This document shows positions 4,326 through 24,000 of a stretch of DNA of 24,000 nt, in pieces. Location: the NCBI RefSeq assembly GCF_003576375.1, contig NZ_QWGE01000006.1:67704-91703 (forward strand), read 5' to 3'. The position numbers and the translations under genes are program-made. How positions within the stretch are numbered: position 1 is the stretch's first letter; each line of letters opens with the position of its first letter. Source of the DNA: Pontibacter oryzae (GTDB lineage: Bacteria; Bacteroidota; Bacteroidia; Cytophagales; Hymenobacteraceae). The notes under the pieces were generated by a model that was not told where the DNA came from, made no database searches, and was given only the letters and a program-made list of their open reading frames with translations.

Positions 4326-4487
4326 ATAAGTATGATTTTTTTAAGTGATTGAAAGTACAGGACTACCGACTCCATACTTTAGCTTTAACTACAACCACCT
4401 GGCTTAAGTTTGCCTGTACAAGGCTTAAAATCGTTGGAAGTATGTTTGGGAGCCACTATCTTGCCTTTACACTTACTATCACTGCCT

Positions 4488-5045
4488 ATGAAACTTACTT
4501 ATTCCTCGCTCCAGTTACGCATAAGCCCGGATCTTTACCTGCAAAAGGCCTCCTTACCCGATGCTCCTGCCCTTTTCCAGATCATTAACCGCGATCGTGA
4601 GTACCTGCGCCAATGGCTTCCCTTCGTGGATTTTAGCGTATCTATAGCCGACACTTCTAATTACCTTAAATTTGTAACGGCACCTGGCAACACCAGCGAC
4701 ATGGTTTTTGTGATTGTGTACAACCACGAAGTATGCGGTCTGATCGGGTTTAAAGGGATAGATAGGCTCAACAAGAAAATCGAGATTGGCTATTGGTTGG
4801 CCGAGGACAAACAGGGGCTTGGCATCATGCGTCGGTCTTGTCACAGGTTGCTAAAGTATGGGTTTGAAAAACTGCACATGAATCGCGCAGAAATCAAAGT
4901 AGGTGTAGGCAACATCCGCAGCAGCAACATCCCCAAAAAACTAGGGTTTACACGAGAGGGCGTGCAGCGGCAAGGCGAGTACCTGAACGGCAGGTTTCAC
5001 GATTTAGAAGTATACAGCTTGCTTCGCGTTGAGTTTAAAGGCTAA
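4488..5045 (+). CDS. GNAT family N-acetyltransferase (RimJ/RimL-like)
   Basis: The ORF is open from 4410, but the ATG at 4488 (MKLTYSSLQLR...) gives the usual RimJ-like N-terminus. The acetyl-CoA-binding region is YWLAEDKQGLGIMRRS and a conserved NIRSSNIPKKLGF motif is present. Confidence 0.75.
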   Translation: MKLTYSSLQLRISPDLYLQKASLPDAPALFQIINRDREYLRQWLPFVDFSVSIADTSNYLKFVTAPGNTSDMVFVIVYNHEVCGLIGFKGIDRLNKKIEIGYWLAEDKQGLGIMRRSCHRLLKYGFEKLHMNRAEIKVGVGNIRSSNIPKKLGFTREGVQRQGEYLNGRFHDLEVYSLLRVEFKG

Positions 5046-5115
5046 GGTATATTTTGCAACGCTTATGCTACTTAATCAGTACTTTTATCTTATTATTTAA
5101 AACGACACTGAAACT

Positions 5116-5742
5116 ATGAGTAACGCAGCCTTCATTCAGATTCACCCCGAGACCCCGCAGGAGCGAAAAATACGGGAGGTGGCAGACATTCTGCGCAATG
5201 GCGGAGTGATTATTTATCCTACAGACACTATCTATGGGCTCGGCTGCGACATTCATAATGCCCGCGCCATTGAGCGTGTGTGCCAGATAAAAGGTGTGAA
5301 GCCAGAAAAAGTAAACTTGTCCTTTATCTGCTCTGACCTGACGCACATCTCTGACTATGCCAAGATAGACACGCCCACGTATAAAGTGATGAAAAAGGCG
5401 CTTCCGGGGCCGTTTACGTTTATTTTGGATGCCACCAGCAATGTCCCCAAGTATGCCAGCGCCAAGAAAAAGACGGTTGGTATACGAGTGCCCGATAATA
5501 AGATTGCGCTGGAACTGGTGAAAGAGCTTGGCAACCCCATCCTATCCACCTCTATCCGTGACGAAGATGAGGTGATAGAATATAGCACCGACCCTGAGTT
5601 GATCTACGAAAAGTATAGAAATCTTGTAGATGCCGTGATAGACGGAGGCTACGGCAATAATATCGCCTCCACGGTAGTAGACGCCTCCAACAACTTCGAA
5701 GTCCTCCGCGAAGGCGCCGGAGACATTGAGGAGTTTTTGTAG
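5116..5742 (+). CDS. tsaC: L-threonylcarbamoyladenylate synthase (YrdC/TsaC type, no Sua5 C-domain)
   Basis: 208 aa with IYPTDTIYGLGCD, KKKTVGIRVPD and GNPILSTSIRDEDE, the hallmarks of the YrdC domain. Confidence 0.85.
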   Translation: MSNAAFIQIHPETPQERKIREVADILRNGGVIIYPTDTIYGLGCDIHNARAIERVCQIKGVKPEKVNLSFICSDLTHISDYAKIDTPTYKVMKKALPGPFTFILDATSNVPKYASAKKKTVGIRVPDNKIALELVKELGNPILSTSIRDEDEVIEYSTDPELIYEKYRNLVDAVIDGGYGNNIASTVVDASNNFEVLREGAGDIEEFL

Positions 5743-7698: not shown

Positions 7699-10296
7699 AT
7701 GGAAGCAAAATTCTCAAACCGAGTAAAAGAGGTCATCTCGCTTAGCCGGGAGGAAGCTATCCGGCTCGGTCACGATTACATCGGCACTGAACACTTGGTG
7801 CTGGGTATGATTCGGGAAGGAGAAGGTACGGCCATTGCTCTGCTTAAGAAGCTTGGCGTTTCGATAGATGAATTAAAGTACGCTTTAGAACAGGCTACAC
7901 GAAATACCGCTACGCAAAGCAGCAATATTACGGGCAGTATCCCTCTCACGAAGCAGACCGAGAAGGTGCTGAAAATCACGTATCTGGAGGCTAAAATCTT
8001 CAAGAGCGATATTATCGGCACAGAGCACCTCTTGTTATCCATCCTTCGGGATGAAGACAACATTTCTTCACAAATTTTAGGGAAATTTAACGTGAACTAC
8101 GAAGCAATAAGAGACTCGCTGGATTATCATAGCAATAATCCACTGGCGTCGTCAGACACAGATGATTCTGACGATTCTGACAAATTGTTTGGCAGCTCCT
8201 CCTCGCGCTCTGGCAGCAGTTCCAGTAAGAAAGCTGGCGAAAAATCACGCACACCAGTGCTGGATAACTTTGGCCGCGACCTTACCAAGTTAGCCGAGGA
8301 CGACAAGCTGGACCCAATAGTTGGCCGTGAAAAAGAAATTGAGCGCGTAGCTCAGGTTCTAAGCCGCCGCAAGAAAAATAACCCAATCCTGATCGGTGAG
8401 CCGGGCGTTGGTAAAACAGCAATTGCCGAAGGCCTTGCCCTGCGTATTGTTCAGAAAAAGGTAAGCCGCGTGCTGTTTAACAAGCGTGTGGTAACCCTGG
8501 ACCTTGCCTCTTTGGTAGCCGGTACAAAATACCGTGGCCAGTTTGAGGAGCGTATGAAAGCCGTGATGAACGAGCTCGAGAAGTCTCCGGATGTGATCCT
8601 GTTCATTGATGAGCTGCATACCATTGTGGGTGCTGGTGGCGCTTCTGGTTCTCTAGATGCCTCTAACATGTTTAAGCCAGCGCTTGCCCGCGGCGAGATC
8701 CAATGCATCGGGGCCACTACCCTGGATGAGTACCGCCAGTACATTGAGAAAGATGGCGCATTAGCCCGTCGTTTCCAGATTGTGATGGTAGACCCTACTA
8801 CGCCAGAGGAGACTATCGAGATCCTGAATAACATTAAGGATAAGTACCAGGATCACCACCACGTTAATTATACCGATAAAGCCATTGAGGCCTGCGTGAA
8901 GCTATCAGACCGCTACATGAGCGACCGCTTCCTGCCAGACAAGGCTATCGATATTCTGGACGAGGCAGGTGCCCGCGTGCACATCAACAACATTGTGGTA
9001 CCAGATGATATCCTGAAGCTGGAAGAGCAGATCGAGAACATCAAGGTGGAGAAAAACCGCGTGGTGAAAAGCCAGAAGTATGAAGAGGCTGCCCAACTGC
9101 GTGATAAGGAGAAAAAACTCATCGACCAGCTCGAAACTGCTAAAAAGAACTGGGAAGAAGAGACCAAGAAGAAGCGCTACCAAGTAAAAGAGGAAAATGT
9201 GGCAGAAGTTATTGCCATGATGACAGGTATACCGGTTAAGCGTATCGCACAGAAAGAAGGTGTGAAACTTCTGAATATGGGCGAAGAGCTGAAAGGCAAA
9301 GTAATCGGCCAGGACAAAGCGATCGGGCAGTTAGTAAAAGCTATCCAGCGTACGCGTGTGGGCCTGAAGGACCCGAAGAAGCCGATTGGTTCCTTTGTAT
9401 TCCTTGGCCCAACGGGTGTAGGTAAAACGGAGCTTGCCAAGGTGCTTGCCACTTACCTCTTCGATAAGGAAGATTCTTTGGTGCGTATCGATATGAGTGA
9501 GTACATGGAGAAATTCAGCGTGTCTCGCTTGGTGGGAGCGCCTCCGGGGTATGTTGGTTACGAAGAAGGTGGTCAGCTTACCGAGAAAATCCGCCGCAAG
9601 CCATACTCTGTGGTATTGCTGGATGAGATTGAGAAAGCGCACCCGGATGTGTATAACCTGCTCTTGCAAGTGCTGGATGACGGTATCCTTACAGACGGAC
9701 TTGGCCGCAAGGTTGATTTCCGTAACACCATCATCATCATGACTTCCAACATCGGAGCGAGAGATCTACAGGATTTTGGTGCCGGTATCGGTTTCATGTC
9801 GAAGAGCAAGCAGGAGAACGTGGACGATATCATGAAAGGCACTATTGCAAGCGCCCTGAAGAAAACGTTCTCGCCTGAGTTCCTTAACCGTTTGGATGAT
9901 GTAATTGTGTTTAACTCGCTTAACCGTGAGGACATGCATAAGATCATCGAGCTGTCGCTTAAGAAATTGTTTACTCGCGTAGAAAGCCTTGGCTATACTA
10001 TCGAGCTGACAAAAGAAGCGAAAGACTTTGTAGCTGAAAAAGGCTATGATCCGAAGTATGGTGCACGCCCGCTTAACAGGGCCATCCAGAAGTATATCGA
10101 AGACCCGATTGCTGAGGAAATTCTTAAAGCCGAGGTGAACCAGGGAGACGTTATCCAGGTGAGCCATAAGGAAGGTGAAGAAACGCTGACTTTTGTTTCT
10201 AAGAAATCAGGAAGCAAAAAGGTAAAAGGAGCTTCTGATGAGGCCGAAGAGACAGAGCCAACCAAGTCATCTGATTCTGATAAGACGAAAGAATAA
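7699..10296 (+). CDS. clpC: ATP-dependent Clp protease ATP-binding subunit ClpC (class I AAA+)
   Basis: It has two Clp_N repeats (IGTEHLVLG / IGTEHLLLS) and two Walker A sites ([16 protein letters not shown]). A UVR-like motif ([15 protein letters not shown]) sits between D1 and D2, and the sensor/ClpB_D2-small C-terminal region is present. Confidence 0.92.
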
Positions 10297-11640: not shown

Positions 11641-12939
11641 ATGACGTATAAATTCGCCGCCCTTGCCCTGGCCTGTGGCTTCGCCACTACCCTATCCGCT
11701 CAAAATATCAACAGCATTACACAGGAGCAAACTACAAGAATCGTATCTACGCTTAGTTCCGACGACATGCAGGGCCGTGCTTCGTTTACGCCTGGCATAG
11801 ACAAAGCGGCTAAATTTATTCAAAATGAGTTTCAGCGCGTAGGCTTACAGCCCTTGCCAGGCAAAAACAGCCTAATGCAAACTTTTGAAGTATACCGCGT
11901 GGCCCCAGTTGCTTATAAGGCAAAGCTGGATGGCCAGGACGTTGCCCCGGAAAACATCTTCGCTACCACAGAAAAAACAAAAATCAGCTGGAAGCAGAAA
12001 AATAAGAAGGCGTTAGTGCGTATCAGTGAGGCCGATGATTTTAGAGCTGCCCTGCGTAATTTAAAACCTGATGAAGACGCGCTAGTGTTAGTGCACCCCA
12101 AGCACACTGAGATCTTTAAACGCTACCAGCATTATCTAGGCGAAGGAAGCGTAAAGCAAAAGCTGGGAGAAAACACCAGCCGCGTGTTTATACTTACAGA
12201 CCAGCAAACGGAGCCATCCAAGTATAAAATTGAGGTGAAGAATACTATCGAGAAGCTGCCGTTAACCAATGTGGCCGGCATGATTGAGGGCAAGCGCAAA
12301 GATGAGTTTGTGGTGTTTTCGGGCCACTACGACCACATTGGCATTCAGGAAGCCGTAGAAGGCGACAGCATTGCCAACGGCGCCGACGACGATGCAGCGG
12401 GCACCACTGCCATGATGATGCTGGCCGAGTACTACAAAAAGCAGCCACAGCCGGAGCGCACACTTCTTTTTGTGGCCTTTGCCGCAGAAGAGATCGGTGG
12501 TTTTGGATCTAAATACTTCTCGGAGCAGCTGAACCCAGACCAGATCGTGGCTATGTTTAATATTGAGATGGTGGGCAAACCTTCCAAATTCGGCCCAAAT
12601 AGCGCCTACCTCACCGGCTTTGAAAAGTCTGATTTGGGCAAACTGATGCAGAAACGACTAGAAGGCACGGCATACAGCATCCACCCCGACCCATACCCGG
12701 AGCAGAACCTGTTCTACCGCTCCGACAACGCCACATTGGCCCGCCTCGGTGTACCGGCCCATACTATTTCCTCGGTGCAGATCGATCAGGACAAAACGTA
12801 CCACACCGTAAACGACGAACTGGAGCAGCTAAACATGGAGCACCTCACCAACATGATCCGCGCGGTTGCCCTGGCTTCTGAAGGTGTAGTTAACGGCGAG
12901 GATACACCAACGCGAGTGGATAAATCGCAAGTGAGGTAA
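11641..12939 (+). CDS. Secreted M28 family zinc aminopeptidase
   Basis: Signal peptide (ALALACGFATTLSAQ) and M28 metal-ligand blocks: SGHYDHIG, GADDDAAGT, AAEEIGGFGS and a late H (YHTVND). Confidence 0.85.
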   Translation: MTYKFAALALACGFATTLSAQNINSITQEQTTRIVSTLSSDDMQGRASFTPGIDKAAKFIQNEFQRVGLQPLPGKNSLMQTFEVYRVAPVAYKAKLDGQDVAPENIFATTEKTKISWKQKNKKALVRISEADDFRAALRNLKPDEDALVLVHPKHTEIFKRYQHYLGEGSVKQKLGENTSRVFILTDQQTEPSKYKIEVKNTIEKLPLTNVAGMIEGKRKDEFVVFSGHYDHIGIQEAVEGDSIANGADDDAAGTTAMMMLAEYYKKQPQPERTLLFVAFAAEEIGGFGSKYFSEQLNPDQIVAMFNIEMVGKPSKFGPNSAYLTGFEKSDLGKLMQKRLEGTAYSIHPDPYPEQNLFYRSDNATLARLGVPAHTISSVQIDQDKTYHTVNDELEQLNMEHLTNMIRAVALASEGVVNGEDTPTRVDKSQVR

Positions 12940-12954
12940 ATTTAGTATGTGAAC

Positions 12955-12991
12955 ATCCGGTTATCAGCTGTATTTAGCTAATAACCGGAAT
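12955..12991. other. Imperfect hairpin at the left edge of the cassette array (possible terminator, degenerate attC, or attachment-site remnant)
   Basis: ATCCGGTTAT (12955-12964) pairs with ATAACCGG(A)AT (12981-12991), leaving one bulged A. It lies 16 nt after the peptidase stop and 19 nt before the first cassette junction, GTTGTAT (13010). Confidence 0.4.
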
Positions 12992-13037
12992 AACTCCTTA
13001 TATACAGTAGTTGTATGGTATAGCAAGTCATTAAAGA

Positions 13038-13418
13038 ATGAAAAAAATTTTACTACTCTTCATATGCTTACATCTATACTTTGTAGCCTCTGCACAAGAT
13101 GGAACTGACAGAACAAAGCTTGGGGTAGAGTATGCTAAGCGGGAATTAGCTGACGCACTAAAAAATAATTCACAGAAGCAGATACTTGTAGAGAAGGTTA
13201 TCAAGGATAAACCGACAGCTATTAGTGTGGCAGAAGAAATGCTGTTCAGTATTTATGGAAAAGAGAACATCGTTAGGCAGCGACCTTACGAAAGCCATTT
13301 GATTGACGGTTACTGGGTGCTTAATGGAACATTGCCGAAAGATTGGGTAGGAGGAACATTTCTTATAATAATTAACTCAACTGACGGCAAAGTAATCAAG
13401 TTGACGCACGGAAAATAA
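13038..13418 (+). CDS. NTF2-fold immunity protein (Imm-NTF2 / YbbC-YhhH-like), with signal peptide
   Basis: The motif series AISVAEEMLFSIYGKENIVRQRPYESHLIDGYWVLNGTLPKDWVGGTFLIIINSTDGKVIKLTHGK matches my recollection of the polymorphic-toxin Imm-NTF2 family. The N-terminal leader is MKKILLLFICLHLYFVASAQ. Confidence 0.7.
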   Translation: MKKILLLFICLHLYFVASAQDGTDRTKLGVEYAKRELADALKNNSQKQILVEKVIKDKPTAISVAEEMLFSIYGKENIVRQRPYESHLIDGYWVLNGTLPKDWVGGTFLIIINSTDGKVIKLTHGK

Positions 13419-13428
13419 GAACAACACC

Positions 13429-13495
13429 ATACAACAAAGTGCAGCACTTAGCCTCGGCTTTGCCTCGCCTATTGGCTGCACAAGTAACGTTGGTG
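13429..13495 (+). repeat. attC-like site 1 (67 bp)
   Basis: ATACAAC-AAA-GTGCAGC-[ACTTAGCCTCGGCTTTGCCTCGCCTATTG]-GCTGCAC-AAGTAAC-GTTGGTG. The inner stem is a perfect 7 bp, with outer AAC...GTT. Confidence 0.7.
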
Positions 13496-13515
13496 GTAAC
13501 TGAAATTATAGAAAA

Positions 13516-13947
13516 ATGTACGCAGACGACTATAAATCATGTGAAGAAACCTTTGTCACTCTACGAATTTTCTATGATGCTCAACCGCCAGACTATGTAT
13601 CTGATTTCTTGAAAATAACCCCTTCAAGGACACAAGTAAAAGGAGAAGAGCTGAGTAATAGAAGTAAGTATACTTCTAACGGTTGGTTTTTAAGTTCAGA
13701 AAGAGCAATAACTTCAAAGGATGCAAGAAGGCATATTGATTATCTTTTAGACCAGATTTTACCACTAAAAGAGAAGATTGACGAACTACAGAAAGGCAGC
13801 GCTCAAATTGACATCACTTGCTATTGGGTATCAAAAACCTGCAATGGCGGACCTACTTTATCGAATCAGCAGTTGAAAAAGTTAGCAGATTTAGGTGTGG
13901 ATTTCTGGTTCGACTTTTATTGCAGCGATGAGTTAGACGAAGTATAG
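13516..13947 (+). CDS. DUF4279 domain protein
   Basis: 143 aa. The pattern F.TLRIF...P..V...L.I.P....KGE......NGW.L.S......D....ID.LL..I.....I..L......IDI.CYW....NGGP.L......L...GV.FWFD.Y fits my recollection of the DUF4279 layout. Confidence 0.55.
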   Translation: MYADDYKSCEETFVTLRIFYDAQPPDYVSDFLKITPSRTQVKGEELSNRSKYTSNGWFLSSERAITSKDARRHIDYLLDQILPLKEKIDELQKGSAQIDITCYWVSKTCNGGPTLSNQQLKKLADLGVDFWFDFYCSDELDEV

Positions 13948-13967
13948 AAAAAGAAGAAAACAGCAGC

Positions 13968-14036
13968 CACCAACAAGGTGCATAATTTAGGCTTCGGCTT
14001 ACGCCTCACCCACATTATAGCACGAGACCGTTAGGT
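13968..14036 (+). repeat. attC-like site 2 (69 bp)
   Basis: CACCAAC-AAG-GTGCATAAT-[TTAGGCTTCGGCTTACGCCTCACCCAC]-ATTAT(A)GCAC-GAGACC-GTTAGGT. The inner stem is 9 bp with one bulged A, and the core fits GTTRRRY. Confidence 0.7.
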
Positions 14037-14055
14037 GCAACCGTAAGAAAGAAAA

Positions 14056-14511
14056 ATGACCTTTGATAAAATTTTTTCTGATTCATTTGACACGTTTAAA
14101 GTATTTGACAACATGGATGTGGCAAAAGCCAGTCATCAAGCTGGTAATACTCCAAAAAGCCTTTGGCAAATCTTAAATCATATAACAGTCTGGCAAGAAT
14201 TCCAATTGAACAAATTAAAAGGGTTAGACTCTACGGACATTGAAGAATTGGATACTTGGGAAAATGACCCTGTTGTTCGTGACCAAAGATTATTACAGCA
14301 AACTATCAATACTTTCAATAATCAGATTGAACAGATAAAAAATGAAATCCAAACATTATCTACTGAAAGTAACGATATAGAGAAGAAGTTAAAGATAGTA
14401 CAAGACCTATCAGTCCATCTATCATTTCACCTAGGAGAGATGGTTTTGCAAATGCGGCAAAACGGACATTATCCGATGCCGAGTGAAATGAAGGAATATT
14501 TAGCCAGCTAA
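14056..14511 (+). CDS. Small cytoplasmic protein, possibly DinB-superfamily four-helix bundle
   Basis: 151 aa. SLWQILNHITVWQEF and the C-terminal LSVHLSFHLGEMVLQMRQNG resemble the DinB His-containing helices (H...H.GQ-like). Similarity was judged by eye only. Confidence 0.4.
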   Translation: MTFDKIFSDSFDTFKVFDNMDVAKASHQAGNTPKSLWQILNHITVWQEFQLNKLKGLDSTDIEELDTWENDPVVRDQRLLQQTINTFNNQIEQIKNEIQTLSTESNDIEKKLKIVQDLSVHLSFHLGEMVLQMRQNGHYPMPSEMKEYLAS

Positions 14512-14521
14512 AAACGGCTGT

Positions 14522-14590
14522 ACCTAACCACGCATATACTCCACGCTTCGGCCGACGGCCTCGCGCACCGCCTATACTAGTCCGTTGAGC
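14522..14590 (+). repeat. attC-like site 3 (69 bp)
   Basis: ACCTAAC (fits RYYYAAC) ...CGCTTCGGCCGACGGCCTCGCGC... GTTGAGC (fits GTTRRRY). The inner pairing is weaker than in the other sites (TATA/TATA plus flanking pairs), but it shares the GCTTCGGC...GCCTCGC core with sites 1-2. Confidence 0.6.
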
Positions 14591-14646
14591 TTAATAAGAA
14601 TTTATAGACCTTCGTTGCCTGAAGGCAGAGGTGAACCATAGCACTA

Positions 14647-15048
14647 ATGCAAAAGCTTAGCAAAAAATCAAGGACTCTAATTGTAGCTGGTGCAGTTATA
14701 TTATTGCTGTTACTATACTTTCGAAGTATAAAATTAGAAAAGGGAAATAAAAAAGAACAAGCACAAGCAGTAGCAACAATAGCAGAATTGAAGGCAGGTT
14801 ATCGAGGTGGCATAACCATGACTTATAGATTCTTCTACAAAAACAAGAGGTACTCAGGAACAAGAAAAGTATTTATCAGCAGTTCATATATTAAAAGGTT
14901 CAAGGACAAACACTTTACAGTCGTCTTTAATAAACTTGAGCCAAGTAAAAACCGGCTGTTACTATTGGCTAAAGATTTCGAAGAGTTTGACGTGGCCTAT
15001 CCAGATAGTTTGGAATGGATAGAAGTTTTGAAAAGAAAGTCTCTATGA
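14647..15048 (+). CDS. Small N-terminally membrane-anchored hypothetical protein
   Basis: 133 aa. A single TM helix (TLIVAGAVILLLLLYF) is followed by a Lys/Tyr/Phe-rich beta-type domain. No family was recognised. Confidence 0.5.
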   Translation: MQKLSKKSRTLIVAGAVILLLLLYFRSIKLEKGNKKEQAQAVATIAELKAGYRGGITMTYRFFYKNKRYSGTRKVFISSSYIKRFKDKHFTVVFNKLEPSKNRLLLLAKDFEEFDVAYPDSLEWIEVLKRKSL

Positions 15049-15075
15049 CACCTATAAAACCTGAAGAATTACTGA

Positions 15076-15129
15076 GCTCAACAAAAACTATAGGTTAGCG
15101 TTGCCACCCTATAGCCCAGACCGTTAAAT
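15076..15129 (+). repeat. attC-like site 4 (54 bp)
   Basis: GCTCAAC-AAAAA-CTATAGG-[TTAGCGTTGCCAC]-CCTATAG-CCCAGACC-GTTAAAT. The inner stem is a perfect 7 bp, and both outer 7-mers fit RYYYAAC/GTTRRRY. Confidence 0.7.
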
Positions 15130-15158
15130 TATGCACGAGATGTTAAGCACAAAGTAAC
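15128..15158 (+). repeat. Partial attC 3'-half fragments at the array end
   Basis: ATTATGCACGAGATGTTAAGC (15128-15148) parallels the 3' half of site 2, ATTATAGCACGAGACCGTTAGGT. The following GCACAAAGTAAC (15147-15158) parallels the 3' half of site 1, GCACAAGTAAC. Confidence 0.55.
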
Positions 15159-15160
15159 TG

Positions 15161-15192
15161 AAAAGCGGCTCCCACTCAGGAGCCGCTTTTTT
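15161..15192. terminator. Bidirectional rho-independent terminator
   Basis: AAAA-GCGGCTCC-CACTCA-GGAGCCGC-TTTTTT. The stem is a perfect 8 bp. It lies 3 nt from the stop of the minus-strand EEP gene and closes the plus-strand cassette array. Confidence 0.85.
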
Positions 15193-15194
15193 AT

Positions 15195-16058
15195 TTACTT
15201 CTTCTTCACCTCATACATTACCTCGGCCATCACCGGGAAATGATCCGAAGGGAAAAGGCCATTGGCGTAGGTGTCCGTCAGGATGCCATACTTGCTGACG
15301 CTAAAATCCGGGCTGAGCCAGATGTGGTCGATGCGTTCGTCGGTTTGGCGGGTGGCCTCAAAGGCATTGAAAGTGCCGCGCGGTGCATAGCGGAATTTAG
15401 CCAGTTGGTAAGCTGCCTTCAGGTTGCTACCGTCGCTCATGGCTTTATACTTTTCGTCGTGCTGGCTAAAATTAAAGTCGCCGGTAAGTATAACAGGCGC
15501 TTTTCCGGCAATCTCTTTTATCTTTCGCTGCACCAGCTTTACGCTTTCCTTGCGGGCCTGCTCGCCACGGTGATCGAAATGCACATTGAACAGGTAAAAA
15601 GTATAACCCGTGCCAAGTTCCCGAAACTGCCCCCACGAACACACGCGCGGGTAATCAGCATCCCAACCCTTGCCTGGCTTATCAGGCGTTTCTGAGAGCC
15701 AAAAGTTGCCTTGCTTCAGCAGTTTATACTTATCCTTTTTATAAAATACGGCCGCATACTCGCCTTTTTCCTTGCCATCGTCGCGGCCCACGCCAATATA
15801 ATTGTACCCCGTAAGTTCTTTAGCCATGCCTTGCAGCTGGTGGTGCATTACCTCCTGCGTCCCAAACATATCAAAATCATTAAACTGCACCAGCCCGGAT
15901 ATAATAGGCAAACGATTGTTCCAGGCATTCACGGTATCGTTTACATTATCGTAGCGGATGTTGTAGGTGGCCACGCGCATGGTTTGAGCCTGTGTAAGTA
16001 CAGAGGCACTGCAGAACAGCAACACCAGGCTGGCAAAGTATAAGGCTTTACTTATCAT
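15195..16058 (-). CDS. Secreted endonuclease/exonuclease/phosphatase (EEP) family protein
   Basis: Signal peptide (ASLVLLFCSASVLTQAQ). EEP blocks: RVATYNIRYDN, FGTQEV, NVHFDHRG, TGDFN, IDHIW and SDHFPV. Confidence 0.85.
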   Translation of the reverse strand: MISKALYFASLVLLFCSASVLTQAQTMRVATYNIRYDNVNDTVNAWNNRLPIISGLVQFNDFDMFGTQEVMHHQLQGMAKELTGYNYIGVGRDDGKEKGEYAAVFYKKDKYKLLKQGNFWLSETPDKPGKGWDADYPRVCSWGQFRELGTGYTFYLFNVHFDHRGEQARKESVKLVQRKIKEIAGKAPVILTGDFNFSQHDEKYKAMSDGSNLKAAYQLAKFRYAPRGTFNAFEATRQTDERIDHIWLSPDFSVSKYGILTDTYANGLFPSDHFPVMAEVMYEVKKK

Positions 16059-18976: not shown

Positions 18977-19010
18977 TAGCTTAAAACCATCAATTTTAAA
19001 TTACGCAATT

Positions 19011-19844
19011 ATGCCAGCCGATATATATCCTGCTAGTATAAAACCAAGGTTTGACTTCTGTGTCCTAATCCCGTGTTACAATAACTTCGATGGGTTAGTT
19101 CGATCCATCAACAGTATTGTTTATAGCACACACAGGTTTTGTGTAGTGATTGTAGATGATGGCAGCCAAATGCCTGTAACTGCAGCTGCCATTCATCAGT
19201 ATTGCGATCCCAAAATTGAAATATACACATTACGTCTGCCTTCAAATAGCGGGATAACTCATGCACTGAATATAGGCCTAGAATGGATCTCTGCTCACAT
19301 AGCAGTTAATTACATAGCTAGGCTGGATTGTGGGGATATCTGCTTAAAGGATAGATTTATTCTGCAAATTAAGTTACTCCAAGCAAACCCAAGTATAGGC
19401 TTAGTGGGCAGTTGGTGCACTTTTCAATCTAAGGATAAATCGGTAAGCTATCTATATACTACCCCAACGTATCATTCAGAAATATCCCGCGCTATGCACT
19501 ACAGAAACGTGTTTATACATCCTACGGTAATGTTTCGGGCAAATCTTTTAAAAGTTACGGGCTACTATCCACAGAACTATGATTATGTTGAAGATTATGC
19601 ACTATTTTGGGATATGCTAAAAAATTCAGACACTCAGATTATTAGTAAGCCCCTAGTAATTTGCGAAATTAACCCTGCTGGAATTTCTATGAGTAACCGC
19701 AGAGGCCAGCTTTTGGGTAGGATTCGTGTAGTATCACAGTATGGAACTAGATGGTCGCATAAAATGCTAGGCACGCTAAAGCTATGGATGCTCATGCTGC
19801 TGCCCTATAAGTTTTTGATAAAGCTTAAAGCAAATCTGAAATAA
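19011..19844 (+). CDS. Glycosyltransferase family 2
   Basis: VLIPCYNNFDGLVRSINSI...VVIVDDGS is the GT2 N-terminal signature, with ARLDCGD as the DXD-like motif. ATG 19011 is preferred over the ORF-track start at 18951, which would overlap priA. Confidence 0.8.
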   Translation: MPADIYPASIKPRFDFCVLIPCYNNFDGLVRSINSIVYSTHRFCVVIVDDGSQMPVTAAAIHQYCDPKIEIYTLRLPSNSGITHALNIGLEWISAHIAVNYIARLDCGDICLKDRFILQIKLLQANPSIGLVGSWCTFQSKDKSVSYLYTTPTYHSEISRAMHYRNVFIHPTVMFRANLLKVTGYYPQNYDYVEDYALFWDMLKNSDTQIISKPLVICEINPAGISMSNRRGQLLGRIRVVSQYGTRWSHKMLGTLKLWMLMLLPYKFLIKLKANLK

Positions 19845-20011
19845 AATTAACTGTCAGTTCCAAAACTATGTCGAAACACTAAAATTCTGATAAGAACAAA
19901 AAAAGTTAAGATTACCTACTTTATCTCATTAGAAAATTGCTACTTTTGTGTAAGTAAGGATTTCAGACTAAACAGAGCCTATTCTAAAATCTTTACTTTA
20001 TAAACAAACTT

Positions 20012-21118
20012 ATGATCATAGTACACGTTGTTGAGCCCTTTGCTGCGGGGGTCGCAGTTTTCGTAAAATCCCTTACGGAAACAATGCCTGAAGAGTTACA
20101 TATAGTAATTCACGGTGAGAGAAAGCATGTCATGTCGGCAAAAGAGGTCAAACTTACCTTCCCTAAAAATAACGTTCGCTTCATACACTGGAAATCTGCC
20201 CAGCGATCAGTTAATCCCAAAAAAGATTTACTGGCCTTAGGGGAACTATACAAAATTTTAAGAAGGCTTAAACAAAAAAAACTTGTAGATGCAGTTCATC
20301 TACACTCTTCTAAGAGTGGTCTTTTAGGGCGTGTTGCCTGCCGTATGGCTGGAATAAAGCAAGTAATTTACACCCCTAATGGTGCTCCATTTTTGTCTGG
20401 AGGGAATATGTTAAGCAACTTCGTTTACATGCAACTAGAAAGGTTCGGCAGTAAGGTAGCTGGGTCAGTAGTTTGTTGCTCTGTTTCAGAGCTCCAGGAA
20501 TATGAAAAAAGAGGAATCAAAGCATCCTATATAAGTAACGGTATTTCTTTGCCTAATGCATTAGAAGTAACCAAGCCCCAGAATGCTAAAAGTAAATTCC
20601 AGATTATTACAACCGGAAGAATCGAGGGACAAAAAAACCCACAGCTTTTCAACGAGATAGCCTCATATTTTGAAGAGTTTGATCAGTTTGAGTTTATCTG
20701 GGCCGGTGACGGAGTTGAGCGTTCTGTACTTACAGCAAGTAATATTAAAGTTACAGGGTGGGTTCCTTCTCAACAAATAAAGAAACTCGTCACGCAAGCC
20801 GATATCTACCTTTCTACATCTGTTTTCGAAGGGCTTTCATTTGGAGTGCTTGAAGCTTTAGCATTTAAAAAACCTGTATTACTAAGCCAATGTGTCGGTA
20901 ATAAAGATGTTGTAAAAAGAGGCATCAACGGCGACATATTTAAAAATCAAACCGAGGCTGTTGTCAAAATATTAAGCTATTTTAATAACCGCGACATGGT
21001 CAATGTGATGGGCCAGCACTCATACGATATTTGCAAATCGGAATTTGACATGTTCCGAAACTTCAGATTGTATAAAAATATTTATCAAGGCCTTCCTATT
21101 TTCTCTCTAGCCTCCTAG
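20012..21118 (+). CDS. Glycosyltransferase family 4/1 (GT-B fold)
   Basis: 368 aa. The start is N-terminal IIVHVVEPFAAGV. The C-terminal half carries EGQKNP, a Glycos_transf_1 pattern with the EX7E-like FEGLSFGVLEALA, and KPVL...G. Confidence 0.8.
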   Translation: MIIVHVVEPFAAGVAVFVKSLTETMPEELHIVIHGERKHVMSAKEVKLTFPKNNVRFIHWKSAQRSVNPKKDLLALGELYKILRRLKQKKLVDAVHLHSSKSGLLGRVACRMAGIKQVIYTPNGAPFLSGGNMLSNFVYMQLERFGSKVAGSVVCCSVSELQEYEKRGIKASYISNGISLPNALEVTKPQNAKSKFQIITTGRIEGQKNPQLFNEIASYFEEFDQFEFIWAGDGVERSVLTASNIKVTGWVPSQQIKKLVTQADIYLSTSVFEGLSFGVLEALAFKKPVLLSQCVGNKDVVKRGINGDIFKNQTEAVVKILSYFNNRDMVNVMGQHSYDICKSEFDMFRNFRLYKNIYQGLPIFSLAS

Positions 21119-21139
21119 GCGATTTATATTATTTACTTT

Positions 21140-21508
21140 ATGAGTACATTACTTTTTCAAGAATTCAGCTCTCCCACTGATTCTTCAATGGAGAATATCC
21201 ACAATACTTTAGAGTTGATTCAGCAAAAGCTGCTACAAGAGATCGAAGCAAAACAATTCACAATTAAAACCCTCGAAAATAAGTTAGGGAGGCTCGAATC
21301 TATCATAGACGGCAACCAACAACTAATTAGTACGCTTTACGCAGAACTGAATCAAAACCAAAGATCAACGGAAGGTAACAGGCAGTTAGTAAACAAGTTG
21401 CTCAATGACATTGATCGCTTACAACAGGATATAGAGTGGTATAAGCGAACTTATGAGAACAGAAGTATGATAGGGATTTTAAGAGAGAAGATATTTGGAA
21501 GAAAGTAA
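21140..21508 (+). CDS. Small coiled-coil protein with a WY(K/R)RTYE-type C-terminal tail
   Basis: 122 aa with a heptad-rich, Q/L/E-rich sequence. The last ~30 aa (DIEWYKRTYENRSMIGILREKIFGRK) are paralogous to the C-terminus of the next gene. Confidence 0.6.
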   Translation: MSTLLFQEFSSPTDSSMENIHNTLELIQQKLLQEIEAKQFTIKTLENKLGRLESIIDGNQQLISTLYAELNQNQRSTEGNRQLVNKLLNDIDRLQQDIEWYKRTYENRSMIGILREKIFGRK

Positions 21509-21511
21509 AGC

Positions 21512-22846
21512 ATGATACCTAAAATTATACACTACTGCTGGTTTGGAGGGGCTGAAATACCCTTAGAGTATCAAAAGTATATTGCAGAATGGCAAGAGCT
21601 TCACCCTGAATGGGAGATAAAGAGATGGGATGAGCTTAACTTTCCATTAGATAACACTTATATAAAAAACGCAATTGAATCAAGCCATTGGGCTAATGCA
21701 AGTAACTATGCTAGGCTAAGAGTACTGGAATTATATGGCGGAGTTTACTTAGATACCGATGTTAAACTCTTGAAACCAATTGATGCACTGTTAAACGACA
21801 AGTGCTTTATTGGTTTTGAAGAGGGGGATGCGGATAACAACACATTTTGGGTGAACAATGCTGTGATGGGCTCTGTAGCATCTCACTCTTTAATTTCTAG
21901 ATGCGCTGCGAAAATAGTTTCCGATTTTGATGGCACAGAACGAGCAAATGAATCTGCACCTAAACTTGTTACAAAGCTACTGATTGAAGAATATGGCTTA
22001 AAAAATTATGGCCGTCAGCAGTTATCTGATGGAATCAAGTTATACAATAAAGAAGTCTTTTACCCTATTCCTTGGAACTACGCTAAGAACGTGCGGAATT
22101 ATGAGCAGTTCCTATATTCCGATACCCTTGCAGTGCACATGTGGGGAAGGACATGGTTTAGCAGAGAAATGATGCTAGATATGATCGATAATTTGCAAGA
22201 GTGGTCAGGTGAACAGCAGCAACTTATCACAGACCTCAAAGCCAAGCTAGAGCAAGGACAGATAGTTGAGGCAGCTATAAATCAGCTCCAGAATAACCTT
22301 AGTGCTGATAACAACAAAGTATTTACTACACTTCAAGAGCAACATACATTAGTATGTGCTAGTCTTCAAAAGTTTAATGAGGTATACACTTCACAAAACG
22401 AGGAGGCATCTTTGCTGCGCCAAACACTCCATGACAGACAAGAAGAGATATCTCTGCTGCACCAAAAACTACACGATAGACAGGAGGAGATATCTCTGCT
22501 ACACCAAAAACTACACAGCAGACTAGAAGAGATATCTCTGCTGCACCAAAAACTACACAGCAGACAAGATGAAATATCTTTATTGAGCCAGAAACTTCAT
22601 GGCCAACAGGGGGAAATATCTCTGCTACACCAAAAATTACATGACAAACAGAAGGAGATATCACTTCAAGATCAAAAACTGCATGACAGGCAGGAGGAAA
22701 TGGATACTTGCCAGTCTCATTTAAGCCAAGCGTTATCTGCAATAGATAGCAAGGAAAATGACATACAGTGGTATAGAAGAACTTATGAGCAGAGAAGCTT
22801 GATAGGCATTCTAAAGCAAAGAATCACTAGCTATTTCAGAGGATAA
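21512..22846 (+). CDS. GT32-type (Gly_transf_sug, DXD) glycosyltransferase fused to a long repeat-built coiled coil and a conserved tail
   Basis: The N-terminus IPKIIHYCWFGG...W..LHPEWEIKRWDE...NYARLRVLELYGGVYLDTDV is the sugar-binding DXD glycosyltransferase signature. Residues ~297-394 are 14-aa tandem repeats. The C-terminus is DIQWYRRTYEQRSLIGILKQRITSYFRG. Confidence 0.8.
   Translation: MIPKIIHYCWFGGAEIPLEYQKYIAEWQELHPEWEIKRWDELNFPLDNTYIKNAIESSHWANASNYARLRVLELYGGVYLDTDVKLLKPIDALLNDKCFIGFEEGDADNNTFWVNNAVMGSVASHSLISRCAAKIVSDFDGTERANESAPKLVTKLLIEEYGLKNYGRQQLSDGIKLYNKEVFYPIPWNYAKNVRNYEQFLYSDTLAVHMWGRTWFSREMMLDMIDNLQEWSGEQQQLITDLKAKLEQGQIVEAAINQLQNNLSADNNKVFTTLQEQHTLVCASLQKFNEVYTSQNEEASLLRQTLHDRQEEISLLHQKLHDRQEEISLLHQKLHSRLEEISLLHQKLHSRQDEISLLSQKLHGQQGEISLLHQKLHDKQKEISLQDQKLHDRQEEMDTCQSHLSQALSAIDSKENDIQWYRRTYEQRSLIGILKQRITSYFRG
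22400..22693 (+). repeat. Seven in-frame 42-bp tandem repeats (14-aa unit, consensus EEISLLHQKLHDRQ), followed by a degenerate eighth
   Basis: Units start at 22400, 22442, 22484, 22526, 22568, 22610 and 22652. Units 2-4 are nearly identical at the DNA level (gaagagatatctctgctgcaccaaaaactacac...). Confidence 0.9.
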
Positions 22847-22878
22847 AGTCAAAAAGCAAAATAGTAAATATTACATAC

Positions 22879-24000
22879 GTGGATAATTTTTTAAGTAATC
22901 GAATCGCTAAAACCAATTATTACTATAGCGAAGAGGCACACCACCTATTTCAGGTTCAAAAACTAAATAAAAGTAATTTTGCTGAGAATGGTAAAAACTT
23001 AACCATTAGTCTGCTCAGTTTAAATAGAGTTAAACTCACTATTAAACTATTGCTTTCAATTGAGTATTACTTTCCAAACTATCAAGGAGAAGTACTCATT
23101 ATAGACAATGGATCTGCGGTTGATCAAATTACTCAACTAATAGAATTCTCTAAAACTTCTTCTTTAAAAATTAATATTAAAGAGTTGGGAGAAAACCACG
23201 GAGTTGGGAGAGCTAGAAACATTGCAGCTCAAGAAATAAGTACCGACTGGATTATGTTTATTGATAACGACATGTATTTCATAAACAATCCTTTACCTGC
23301 TATCAAAAGTGCAATTGAACTTTTAGGCTGTAATTTTTTAAATCTTCCTTTAATCAATTATGATAATAAAACGGTATTTGCCTTAGGCGGAGCTTTATTT
23401 CCAACATCTCTTGCTGATGGATATTTTATAGGTGGAGGTAGTAGCTTTAATTTTAGGCAAGAAAAAGAAGCTGACCAAATAAATCTTCAGGCCCCATTTT
23501 TATCTGATTTCTTATTTGGGGGGGCTAGTGTAGTTAATAGGCATGCATTCAACCAAATGGGTGGGTTTGACTATGATATGTTTGTGGGGTTTGAAGACAT
23601 TGACTTTTCCCTAAGATTATATAACAGCGGAATCAAGATCGGCAATATTCACAAGTTTACATTAATTCATAACCATAAGCCGCCAGTAAACGAAAATGAC
23701 CTAATAGCTGAAAAGAAACGATTTAGTAATAGCGTAATTAAACAATCAGCTAATGCATTCAAACAAAAAAATGGACTTATAGTTTACGACTCCAATACAG
23801 AAGAATGGTTGCGTGAAAGGGAAAATGAATTGAATATTACTTCCTCCCAACTCATCCAAAACAGAGAGGAAAAGCCTAAAGTTGCACTAGTTGTTGATGC
23901 ACAAAATTGGGCATTTCATAATATTGCAAAAAATATAGTTAAAGAACTTTCAGCTAAATATGATTTTGAAATTTTATTTCAATCCAGTTATCTCGGTGAG
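22879..24000 (+). CDS. Glycosyltransferase family 2, multi-domain, 3'-truncated by the window end
   Basis: This ORF is not in the supplied ORF track because it has no stop in the window. I translated the frame from 22879 (GTG; the preceding in-frame stop is at 22828) to 24000 with no stop. It reads LTISLLSLNR...VLIIDNGSAVD...GENHGVGRARN...FIDNDM...GGFDYDMFVGFEDIDFSLRL, then a second region begins (KVALVVDAQNWAFHNIAKNIVKEL). Confidence 0.75.
   Translation, partial: MDNFLSNRIAKTNYYYSEEAHHLFQVQKLNKSNFAENGKNLTISLLSLNRVKLTIKLLLSIEYYFPNYQGEVLIIDNGSAVDQITQLIEFSKTSSLKINIKELGENHGVGRARNIAAQEISTDWIMFIDNDMYFINNPLPAIKSAIELLGCNFLNLPLINYDNKTVFALGGALFPTSLADGYFIGGGSSFNFRQEKEADQINLQAPFLSDFLFGGASVVNRHAFNQMGGFDYDMFVGFEDIDFSLRLYNSGIKIGNIHKFTLIHNHKPPVNENDLIAEKKRFSNSVIKQSANAFKQKNGLIVYDSNTEEWLRERENELNITSSQLIQNREEKPKVALVVDAQNWAFHNIAKNIVKELSAKYDFEILFQSSYLGE

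Follow-up and report, generated by a model that had tools for sequence, protein, structure and literature searches.

Integron biology has two linked hallmarks, namely attC sites that fold with extrahelical bases and an integrase whose extra domain reads them. Surveys have recovered very few integrons in Bacteroidota, and many integrase-less arrays in these surveys are unexplained. The subject of this article is an array of four gene cassettes at positions 13010–15129 of a 24-kb stretch of the Pontibacter oryzae chromosome, hereafter called the window. This is very probably an integrase-less array of the integron type composed of four mobile cassettes, i.e., a cluster of attC sites that lacks integron-integrases (CALIN), and, with moderate confidence, one that belongs to a variant enzyme. 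CALINs are a known class of elements (PMC4889954, 2016; Néron et al., 2022, PMC9024848). Taken alone, the array is a further CALIN; with its non-classical sites and the consistent association of related arrays with a co-oriented recombinase devoid of the integrase-specific domain, it is more likely the representative of a variant branch.

In Bacteroidetes, IntegronFinder 2 reported In0 elements alone and later one Salinibacter integron. The additional domain counts as a necessary trait by which integron integrases are defined (Messier and Roy, 2001, cited in PMC4889954; also PMC4792948). In archaeal integrons, attI lies just downstream of intI, and the integrases are reported to have this domain (Ghaly et al., 2022, 10.1101/2022.02.06.479319). 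Our literature search found no description of integrons in Pontibacter or of cassette arrays that depend on an enzyme without this domain. The array in the window resembles other CALINs in having at least two attC-type sites between promoterless open reading frames (ORFs) on the same strand with no integrase within several kb, in its foreign-looking cassettes of unknown function, and in its typical size of four cassettes. It differs from them in that its sites are missed by a class-1-derived model and have other spacers and extrahelical bases, and in that one chromosomal junction holds different cassettes in related species. The criterion for a CALIN was a group of two or more attC sites in at most 4 kb and no integron-integrase closer than 4 kb. 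A preliminary description, made from the DNA letters alone, had proposed a CALIN-type orphan array, and this assignment is supported, as at least two sites, called by covariance model R1 (see below) and manually, lie within 4 kb without a recombinase.

Architecture of the array and anatomy of its sites

The four plus-strand ORFs of the array are each followed by an imperfect palindrome of 54–69 nt with the form …AAC…GTT… (Table 1). Four pairs of sequences, formed by the boundaries of the units and the starts of the palindromes, are exact reverse complements, and each is found once at its place. When complementarity is counted as a contiguous run from GTT/AAC outward, the left ends of units 1–4 are complementary to the starts of their own downstream palindromes over 10, 8, 7, and 8 nt, while within a single palindrome the two ends are complementary to each other over just 4, 3, 3, and 3 nt at sites 1–4. 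For example, the pair is GTTGTATGGT/ACCATACAAC in cassette 1 (10 nt), GTTAGGT/ACCTAAC in cassette 3 (7 nt), and GTTGAGCT/AGCTCAAC in cassette 4 (8 nt). Lone pairs of at least 7 nt at a distance of 300–900 nt are common by chance (34 of the 3871 GTT/AAC pairs in the window), but 300 simulations of the window with a first-order Markov model yielded no chain of four pairs joined by sites of 40–140 nt; the longest simulated chain had three pairs and was reached in 22 runs.

AAC and GTT are invariant at the core sites of the array. By direct reading of the sequence, RYYYAAC/GTTRRRY is fitted by four of the eight paired 7-mers and also by GTTAAAT and GTTAAGC at the terminus. GC content is 38% in the array (35–39% in the ORFs) and 43–49% in the flanks. 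The four sites span at most 2.1 kb, and the nearest contig edges are 13 and 9 kb off. Thus the preliminary description holds for the exactness of the four pairs, for the pairing of each unit with its own and not the adjacent palindrome, for the invariant AAC…GTT, and for the AT-rich composition, while its count of five fitting terminal 7-mers out of eight falls to four.

When both strands of the sites were folded as single-stranded DNA, as had been proposed, the bottom strand was more stable than the top strand at all four: −13.0/−8.1, −9.3/−6.8, −8.2/−5.1, and −6.7/−3.8 kcal/mol (bottom/top, sites 1–4). The z-scores of single sites are modest, from −1.7 to −2.1. Given the classical cleavage geometry, the bottom strand is likely to be the recombination substrate, since it is R′, rather than R″, that marks the boundaries. 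The inner stems measure 7 bp at site 1, 9 bp with a bulged A at site 2, and 7 bp at site 4, so that stems of 7–9 bp with one bulged A, as first described, are found at these three sites and not at site 3, where the stem has 4–5 bp. The R″–L″/L′–R′ spacers of sites 1–4 are 3/7, 3/6 with a bulge in L′, approximately 6/7, and 5/8 nt. Class-1 integrons taken from plasmids served as controls (the IntI1 query was matched at 100%); in their sites, R″ is separated from L″ by 5 nt and L′ from R′ by 6 nt, and L″ contains a bulged base. No extrahelical L″ base was found at the four window sites, and the search for extrahelical bases suggested with the preliminary description thus ended with spacers unlike the class-1 5/6 and no L″ bulge. 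The excess of the R′-side spacer is 1–4 nt in the window sites and 4 nt in five recombinase-linked arrays (L189, L213, L219, L221, and L223; L-numbers are labels of comparison loci or contigs). An architecture with a longer R′-side spacer, AAC-(1–3 nt)-stem…stem-(5–8 nt)-GTT, was defined on the recombinase-linked arrays, and the window sites were judged to match it.

The L″/L′ pairing is kept by structure rather than by sequence. In the family alignment, compensatory changes with both sides altered occur at five pairs of the L stem, with site 3 as an exception; the covariation score of the stem was reached by 1 of 500 shuffles, and in slid registers the pairing falls from 64% to 22–39%. Site lengths across the family range from 54 to approximately 130 nt, and the variation is confined to the loop. 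Site 4, first described as extending to 15148, most likely ends at GTTAAAT (15123–15129) and is 54 nt long, because this inner GTT fits the family consensus …ACCGTT. The outer GTTAAGC (15142) was ruled out as its R′ since it would need a spacer of 27 nt. The remainder up to 15148 is an orphan half-site, probably a relic of an earlier terminal site; it may alternatively be a relic of a deleted cassette. The last sites of some related arrays, i.e., L001 (~8200–8290), L090 (2393–2480), L009 (~190–128, minus strand), and L219 (12351–12616), end with GCT, GTA, or ATT. These ends could reflect terminal-site decay or hybrid junctions formed by insertion at non-GTT targets.

Covariance model R1 was built from nine sites of the window, L090, and L091 with 10 base pairs, and was searched against approximately 2.4 Mb of fetched DNA. 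Inside the window, it matches just the four sites. Its matches outside the training set all lie inside arrays: two in L015 (E = 5e-9 and 5e-6) and one each in L092 (1e-8), L168 (7e-11), and L189 (7e-5), the site in L092 following a DUF4279 homologue. The further copies of the sites that the preliminary description had asked for are therefore array-borne sites of L015, L092, L168, and L189. A pattern scan of metagenomes with GCTTCGGCTNNNCCTTGCYC returned 120 stretches; judged by R1, all except L168 and L189 were discarded as chance matches to the GC-rich core.

Cassette mobility and the recombinase next to related arrays

The interval between the M28 peptidase gene and the endonuclease/exonuclease/phosphatase (EEP) family gene, where the array lies, is 1.7–3.6 kb long in Pontibacter species and varies in content, and orthologues of the peptidase gene border variable inserts in other species of the genus. 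In L006, no EEP homologue was found, and the distance from the peptidase gene to PriA is 4.6 kb. Homologues of the four ORFs were absent from the peptidase–EEP intervals of other Pontibacter species. In the closest relative, L002 (ClpB 98% and PriA 99% identical), nucleotide homology reaches position 13012 of the window (…CAGTAGTT), stops, and resumes at 15155; between the breakpoints there is a different cassette with a site of approximately 125 nt behind an identical left junction. The comparison of this locus across relatives, recommended at the outset, thus revealed an exchange of cassettes, and the chromosome, first called Bacteroidota-like, was assigned to P. oryzae by the cassette 4 protein and the orthologous loci.

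The peptidase gene itself is a mosaic relative to L002 (window 11641–13012, L002 10001–11377): its 5′ half is 59–68% identical at the nucleotide level, its 3′ half together with the intergenic junction 82–94%, and the farther flanks 85–90%. This pattern suggests a recombination breakpoint inside the peptidase gene next to the array. In Pontibacter mucosus (L007, 11297–12450), the peptidase stop codon is directly followed by GTTGTACAT and an AT-rich ORF of approximately 370 amino acids, and no attC was found in this insert by R1. The peptidase–EEP interval is a general insertion hot spot, not for cassettes alone.

Cassette 2 recurs in other arrays. Its homologues on metagenome contigs are 80–84% identical in amino acids, and the TT…G segment (527–541 bp) has 82–85% nucleotide identity with its counterparts in L090 and L091, two unrelated metagenome arrays, and 65–67% with that in L092. 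The 80 nt on either side of the copies are at background (42–55%), and at either end the homology breaks off exactly at a GTT triplet. All four DUF4279 copies (window, L090, L091, and L092) begin with GTTGGTGGTAACTGAAAT, and their own downstream sites begin with CCACCAAC, while the neighbouring cassettes differ on both sides in each array. Site 2 is nearly identical to the site behind the L090 homologue, and more distant copies of the cassette are found in L214–L217. Because the homology spans exactly TT…G, the orientation is fixed: the ORF travels with its downstream site. The recurrence of cassette 2 with GTT-exact ends, together with the different cassette behind the same junction in L002, indicates that the units are mobile modules. 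The integron cassette model put forward in the preliminary description is thereby supported, with cassette 2 in three other arrays and breaks of homology at GTT. In L092, a DDE transposase gene (4484–5245) lies directly upstream of a short array with the DUF4279 cassette; such a transposase is a possible route for moving integrase-less arrays.

The left junction of the array is conserved in three relatives with an array at the same locus, and a similar motif recurs with an equal offset in two arrays located elsewhere. A box, ATARCCG, precedes the first GTT by 31–32 nt in the window (ATAACCG), L001, L015, and L090. This box aligns weakly to the L stem of R3, a small and sequence-biased model built from the trimmed arms of ten sites of recombinase-linked arrays alone. 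The distance from the peptidase stop codon to the first GTT is 70 nt, with no intI pseudogene between. A hairpin in this gap (12956–12989) has no T-run and was not called as a terminator; since its box is also common to other arrays, the reading of this hairpin solely as the terminator of the peptidase gene was dropped. The left junction with its hairpin may be a remnant of an attI-like or a degenerate attC-like site, because it is conserved in the three relatives and a similar motif occurs in the two arrays at other loci. The earlier statement that no attI is recognizable therefore holds for the intact attI layout, and is qualified by the conserved junction as a possible remnant.

Complete relatives of such arrays are linked to a tyrosine recombinase. 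In L189, an internally deleted tyrosine recombinase gene lies directly upstream of a cassette and is co-oriented with it. Its relatives form a very large family of proteins of approximately 360–380 amino acids with Pfam PF13495 and PF00589 and a weak PF22823. The context was fetched for six members (L189, L213, L215, L219, L221, and L223; the further contexts L220 and L222 pair with L219 and L221), and in all six a co-oriented array with exact staggered pairs follows approximately 110 nt after the recombinase stop codon. For example, L213 has the pair GTTATATGA/TCATATAAC, and L221 has GTTGTCCGA/TCGGACAAC, GTTAGGCGA/TCGCCTAAC, and GTTAGCCGAA/TTCGGCTAAC. L215 was reached through a DUF4279 homologue 55% identical to cassette 2; its full-length recombinase gene (360 amino acids) ends 127 nt before the cassette ORF and approximately 110 nt before the first GTT. 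An inverted repeat, GGATATCCGAA-N5-TTCGGATAT-N6-GTT, is conserved before the first GTT in L189, L219, and L221, and a looser version of this attI repeat is present in L213 and L223. The recombinase-linked sites have spacers of 1 and 5 nt around stems of 7–11 bp. L214, L216, and L217 share the same first cassette followed by differing cassette orders, with homogeneous sites of approximately 125 nt; the L214 recombinase is shortened to 70 amino acids by an insertion. The cassettes of L221 (1699–8663) encode an OLD-family nuclease with a UvrD helicase (Gabija-like), an AccI-type restriction-modification pair, and a NUDIX protein, where the Gabija-like pair and the restriction-modification pair each form a single cassette with exact staggered pairs. 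The contig of L213 opens with the 3′ end of a tRNA-like sequence (1–60) just upstream of the recombinase gene, and therefore some such elements may adjoin tRNA genes.

Judged from profile scores and alignments, this recombinase appears to be XerA-like, not a classical IntI. Full-length members score 215–244 bits against NF040815 (XerA-type, cutoff 220), and members score 205–225 bits, in two stretches, against TIGR02249 (integron integrase), below the cutoff of 265. Among solved structures, archaeal XerA ranks first (140 bits), while VchIntIA gives 116 bits in two stretches. Pairwise and multiple alignments revealed that the family lacks the IntI1 residues ~197–227, including the ALER motif, and 233–242, retains R, K, HxxR, H, and Y of the catalytic set, and adds a conserved N-terminal extension of approximately 90 amino acids. 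No classical IntI was present in any fetched locus. L171, retrieved by tblastn as an IntI1 relative, was rejected as an ordinary XerC.

Several observations connect this lineage with the window array. In Pontibacter sp. 13R65 (L015), two window-family sites lie behind a 92-amino acid C-terminal recombinase remnant, which has 37% identity to residues 269–360 of Int215 (E = 7e-9), the same orientation, and a distance of approximately 135 nt to the first GTT. The 5′ end of the DUF4279 cassette in L215 is homologous to that of cassette 2 (GTTAGCGGTAACTG… vs. GTTGGTGGTAACTG…), and a loop motif, …TTCGGC…GCCTCACCCA(A/C)AT, is common to site 2, L219, L221, and L223. On the basis of the L015 remnant, the site in L189 scored by R1, the L215 cassette, the R′-side spacer excess, and the loop motif, the link is graded as moderate. 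It is no more than moderate because R3 is non-significant on the window, R1 is weak on L221 and L219, and the junction is unlike an intact attI. With the same moderate confidence, the cognate enzyme would be a member of the XerA-like family with the N-terminal extension of approximately 90 amino acids and without the IntI additional domain.

Mechanism, known systems, and competing explanations

Each cassette begins with the TT of a GTT triplet, ends with the G of the following triplet, and comprises one promoterless ORF with its own palindrome, in the order R″…AAC – L″ – variable loop – L′ – spacer – GTT, and the R-box complementarity belongs to the circular form of the cassette. In the proposed mechanism, a tyrosine recombinase that acts in trans, or once acted in cis, would excise the cassette as a circle through G|TT recombination between two successive folded sites, and circles would re-enter at the GTT that comes first after the conserved left junction. 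In the complete relatives, the order is the recombinase gene directly upstream and co-oriented, then the inverted-repeat attI, and then the first GTT. Promoter-like and terminator-like sites inside the array were not above shuffles, and no T-runs follow the site hairpins. Transcription of the cassettes by read-through from the peptidase gene is likeliest, because there are no internal promoters above chance and the hairpin in front of the array has no T-run; it would run up to the terminator at 15160–15191.

The classical integrons (class 1 and the Vibrio superintegron) share with this system the circle-derived module cut at G|TT, the hybrid R′, paired R and L boxes, the variable loop, and ORFs in one direction. 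Furthermore, the homogeneous site families of L214 and L217 are like the Vibrio cholerae repeats, and the homogeneous ~125-nt sites of L214, L216, and L217 are as in sedentary chromosomal integrons. In contrast to the classical integrons, the recombinase gene of the relatives is upstream and co-oriented rather than divergent, and its product has an extra N-terminal domain and no ALER additional domain; the spacers are 1/5 nt in complete relatives and 3/6–8 nt in the window instead of 5/6, without an L″ extrahelical base. Reverse-orientation integrons of Treponema and other Spirochaetota, and archaeal integrons, likewise have integrase and cassettes co-directional with attI right after the integrase stop codon, but the IntI-specific domain reported there is absent from the family here (Ghaly et al., 2022, 10.1101/2022.02.06.479319). 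Archaeal XerA is the solved structure nearest to the lineage recombinase, which scores at or near the NF040815 cutoff; this recalls XerA, XerC, XerD, and the pdif systems, whereas the recombinase gene adjoins cassette arrays and no dif site, and the palindromes are long and structured compared with dif cores of 28 bp.

Movement of double-stranded modules by Xer at dif-type sites, like the pdif modules of Acinetobacter plasmids, instead of folded single strands would suit an associated recombinase that is XerA-like and has no counterpart of the domain used by classical IntI on folded attC. This is very unlikely: in the long imperfect palindromes, pairing and not sequence is kept, with compensatory L″/L′ changes, R″ has its complement in the R′ of the circularized cassette, and a length varying from 54 to ~130 nt through the loop alone is the signature of a folded substrate and not of a 28-bp dif-like core. 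Hardly any credence is left for chance, or for ordinary intergenic hairpins and terminators between four unrelated small genes. Single GTT/AAC pairs of 7–8 nt are indeed frequent by chance and the fold z-scores are modest, but the four-pair chain was never simulated, cassette 2 recurs with exact boundaries, family sites are found in arrays alone, and the hairpins are not followed by T-runs. A more serious but still unlikely alternative is an ordinary classical CALIN, with a canonical IntI elsewhere or in the donor and the Xer-like recombinases as bystanders or integrators of the whole element. In classical cassettes, the AAC…GTT cores and the hybrid, staggered R′ take exactly this form, the matches include a possibly cassette-borne DUF4279 homologue of Vibrio parahaemolyticus, one class-1-like site is present in L189, and CALINs are common and mostly without a nearby intI (PMC4889954). 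Against it stand a class-1-derived model that misses all sites of the window family and of L214 and L217, spacers and extrahelical bases that differ from classical attC, and Xer-like members that, in six of six sampled cases, carry a co-oriented array at a fixed distance with no classical IntI in the fetched loci.

There is also a rival that concerns the origin only: circles may have been inserted off-target at a chromosomal GTT (attG-type) behind the peptidase gene, followed by attC × attC additions. It has been documented that cassettes insert at GWT sites of genomes and that small CALINs or single-site counterparts (SALINs, single attC sites lacking integron-integrases) form in this way (Loot et al., 10.1101/2022.09.11.507474); as here, cassettes lie off-platform at a chromosomal GTT behind a resident promoter and can be re-excised given an integrase. 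That study used IntI1, VchIntIA, and classical attCs, whereas here the junction is common to three species and similar boxes exist elsewhere, which argues for more than a random GWT. An off-target origin is possible but somewhat doubtful. It is favoured by the 70-nt gap without a pseudogene, and related arrays do lie behind other housekeeping genes, e.g., an hflX-like gene in L168, while the GCT, GTA, and ATT ends of the terminal sites in L001, L090, L009, and L219 would suit hybrid junctions. A resident element as the origin is favoured because three species hold different cassettes behind the same junction and because L015 is a precedent in Pontibacter for a resident recombinase that has decayed; the similar ATARCCG box, which arrays elsewhere carry equally far from GTT, also speaks against the off-target origin.

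Several results weigh against the reading of the array as an integrase-less array of four mobile cassettes belonging to a variant enzyme. Mobility across arrays is seen for one of the four cassettes, cassette 2 alone. Site 3 has a TATA stem of 4–5 bp, no expected hairpin, and a fold no better than shuffles. No tyrosine recombinase is encoded in the 24 kb, as the preliminary description had stated and as Pfam on all large ORFs and tblastn with IntI1 and the lineage recombinase corroborate, so the co-oriented upstream enzyme or a remnant of it is missing there. The left junction is unlike an intact attI, since its box is 21 nt and not 6 nt from the GTT and the repeat order is reversed. Model R2, derived from seven aligned canonical class-1 attCs, recovers untrained class-1 sites and one site in L189, and with filters off at E ≤ 10 it matched none of the four window sites; those of L090, L091, L168, L214, and L217 were missed as well. 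The attC-model check proposed with the preliminary description was therefore negative with R2, but this failure is weak evidence because the model is small, sequence-biased, and not the attc_4.cm of IntegronFinder, and neither it nor the outcome with R3 counts against mobility. On the window, R3 gave E = 9.7 at site 4, 5.2 at a part of site 2, and nothing at sites 1 and 3, and R1 found the right positions in the recombinase-linked arrays with E values of 7e-5 to 2e-3 in L189 but weakly, at 0.06–0.1, in L221 and L219. The R2-scoring site in L189 (3948–4021, minus strand; 42 bits, E = 6e-9) lies approximately 2 kb upstream of the truncated recombinase gene, and the same contig therefore holds classical-looking and lineage-type sites.

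The locus presents cassette mobility in a Cytophagales chromosome at sites without the classical extrahelical-base layout, and it led to complete relatives with a domain-less recombinase and defence cassettes (Gabija-like and restriction-modification). Tentatively, these elements may form a widespread, undescribed integron-like branch, in Bacteroidota and, by the source names of homologues, many other phyla, in which a XerA-like enzyme encoded by a co-oriented gene acts on structured attC-type sites without the IntI additional domain, which is considered indispensable for recombination of folded attC. If so, the definition used to find integrons would miss a whole branch, and some surveyed CALINs would be complete elements with an unrecognized integrase, which would explain part of the CALIN puzzle. 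Integrase-less copies like the window array may then be serviced in trans, and the gain of folded single-stranded sites by a Xer-type enzyme would become directly testable with a natural intermediate in hand.

Features of the window and neighbouring genes

Table 1. Coordinates of the array, its sites, and adjacent features in the window.
Feature	Position	Strand	Remarks
M28 peptidase gene, co-oriented with cassettes	11641–12939	+	Pfam PF04389, E = 1.7e-38
Hairpin, perfect stem CCGGTTATCAG…CTAATAACCGG, then AATAAC	12956–12989	.	DNA fold z −4 to −5
First crossover triplet GTT, left array boundary	13010–13012	+	L002 homology ends at 13012
Cassette 1 (TT…G), ORF 13038–13418, secreted NTF2-fold immunity-type	13011–13489	+	Pfam Imm-NTF2-2, E = 5.9e-24
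attC-like site 1, 68 nt	13428–13495	+	R″ CATACAAC; L stem GTGCAGC/GCTGCAC; R′ GTTGGTG; spacers 3 and 7 nt
Cassette 2, ORF 13516–13947, DUF4279	13490–14030	+	Pfam PF14106
attC-like site 2, 69 nt	13968–14036	+	L stem GTGCATAAT/ATTAT(A)GCAC, bulged A in L′
Cassette 3, ORF 14056–14511, DinB-superfamily	14031–14584	+	Pfam DinB_2 and DinB
attC-like site 3, 69 nt, weakest	14522–14590	+	GC-rich central hairpin, L stem 4–5 bp
Cassette 4, ORF 14647–15048, membrane-anchored orphan protein	14585–15123	+	No Pfam match
attC-like site 4, 54 nt	15076–15129	+	L stem CTATAGG/CCTATAG; R′ GTTAAAT
Orphan 3′ half-site AATTATGCACGAGATGTTAAGC	15127–15148	+	Resembles L′–R′ half of site 2, read from sequence
Bidirectional intrinsic terminator, common to array and EEP gene	15160–15191	.	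Strong terminator prediction
EEP-family gene	15195–16058	−	Pfam PF03372

The cassette 1 product has a signal peptide and an NTF2-fold of the immunity type. The cassette 4 protein is 100% identical to a P. oryzae protein and has no further relative in an index of 5.8 billion proteins. PADLOC found nothing credible among the four cassette proteins, and neither the peptidase nor cassette 2 had an exact-sequence match on record. An Rfam scan of the window at gathering thresholds gave no match (Rfam apparently has no attC family), and no tRNA or tmRNA gene was found in the window. The array is flanked by housekeeping genes, with ClpB, an AI-2E transporter, and the M28 peptidase on the left, and the EEP-family gene, PriA, and glycosyltransferases on the right. 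The glycosyltransferase cluster (19000–24000) has a GC content of 32–41%, markedly below the rest of the window, and is probably a horizontally acquired polysaccharide locus unrelated to the array.

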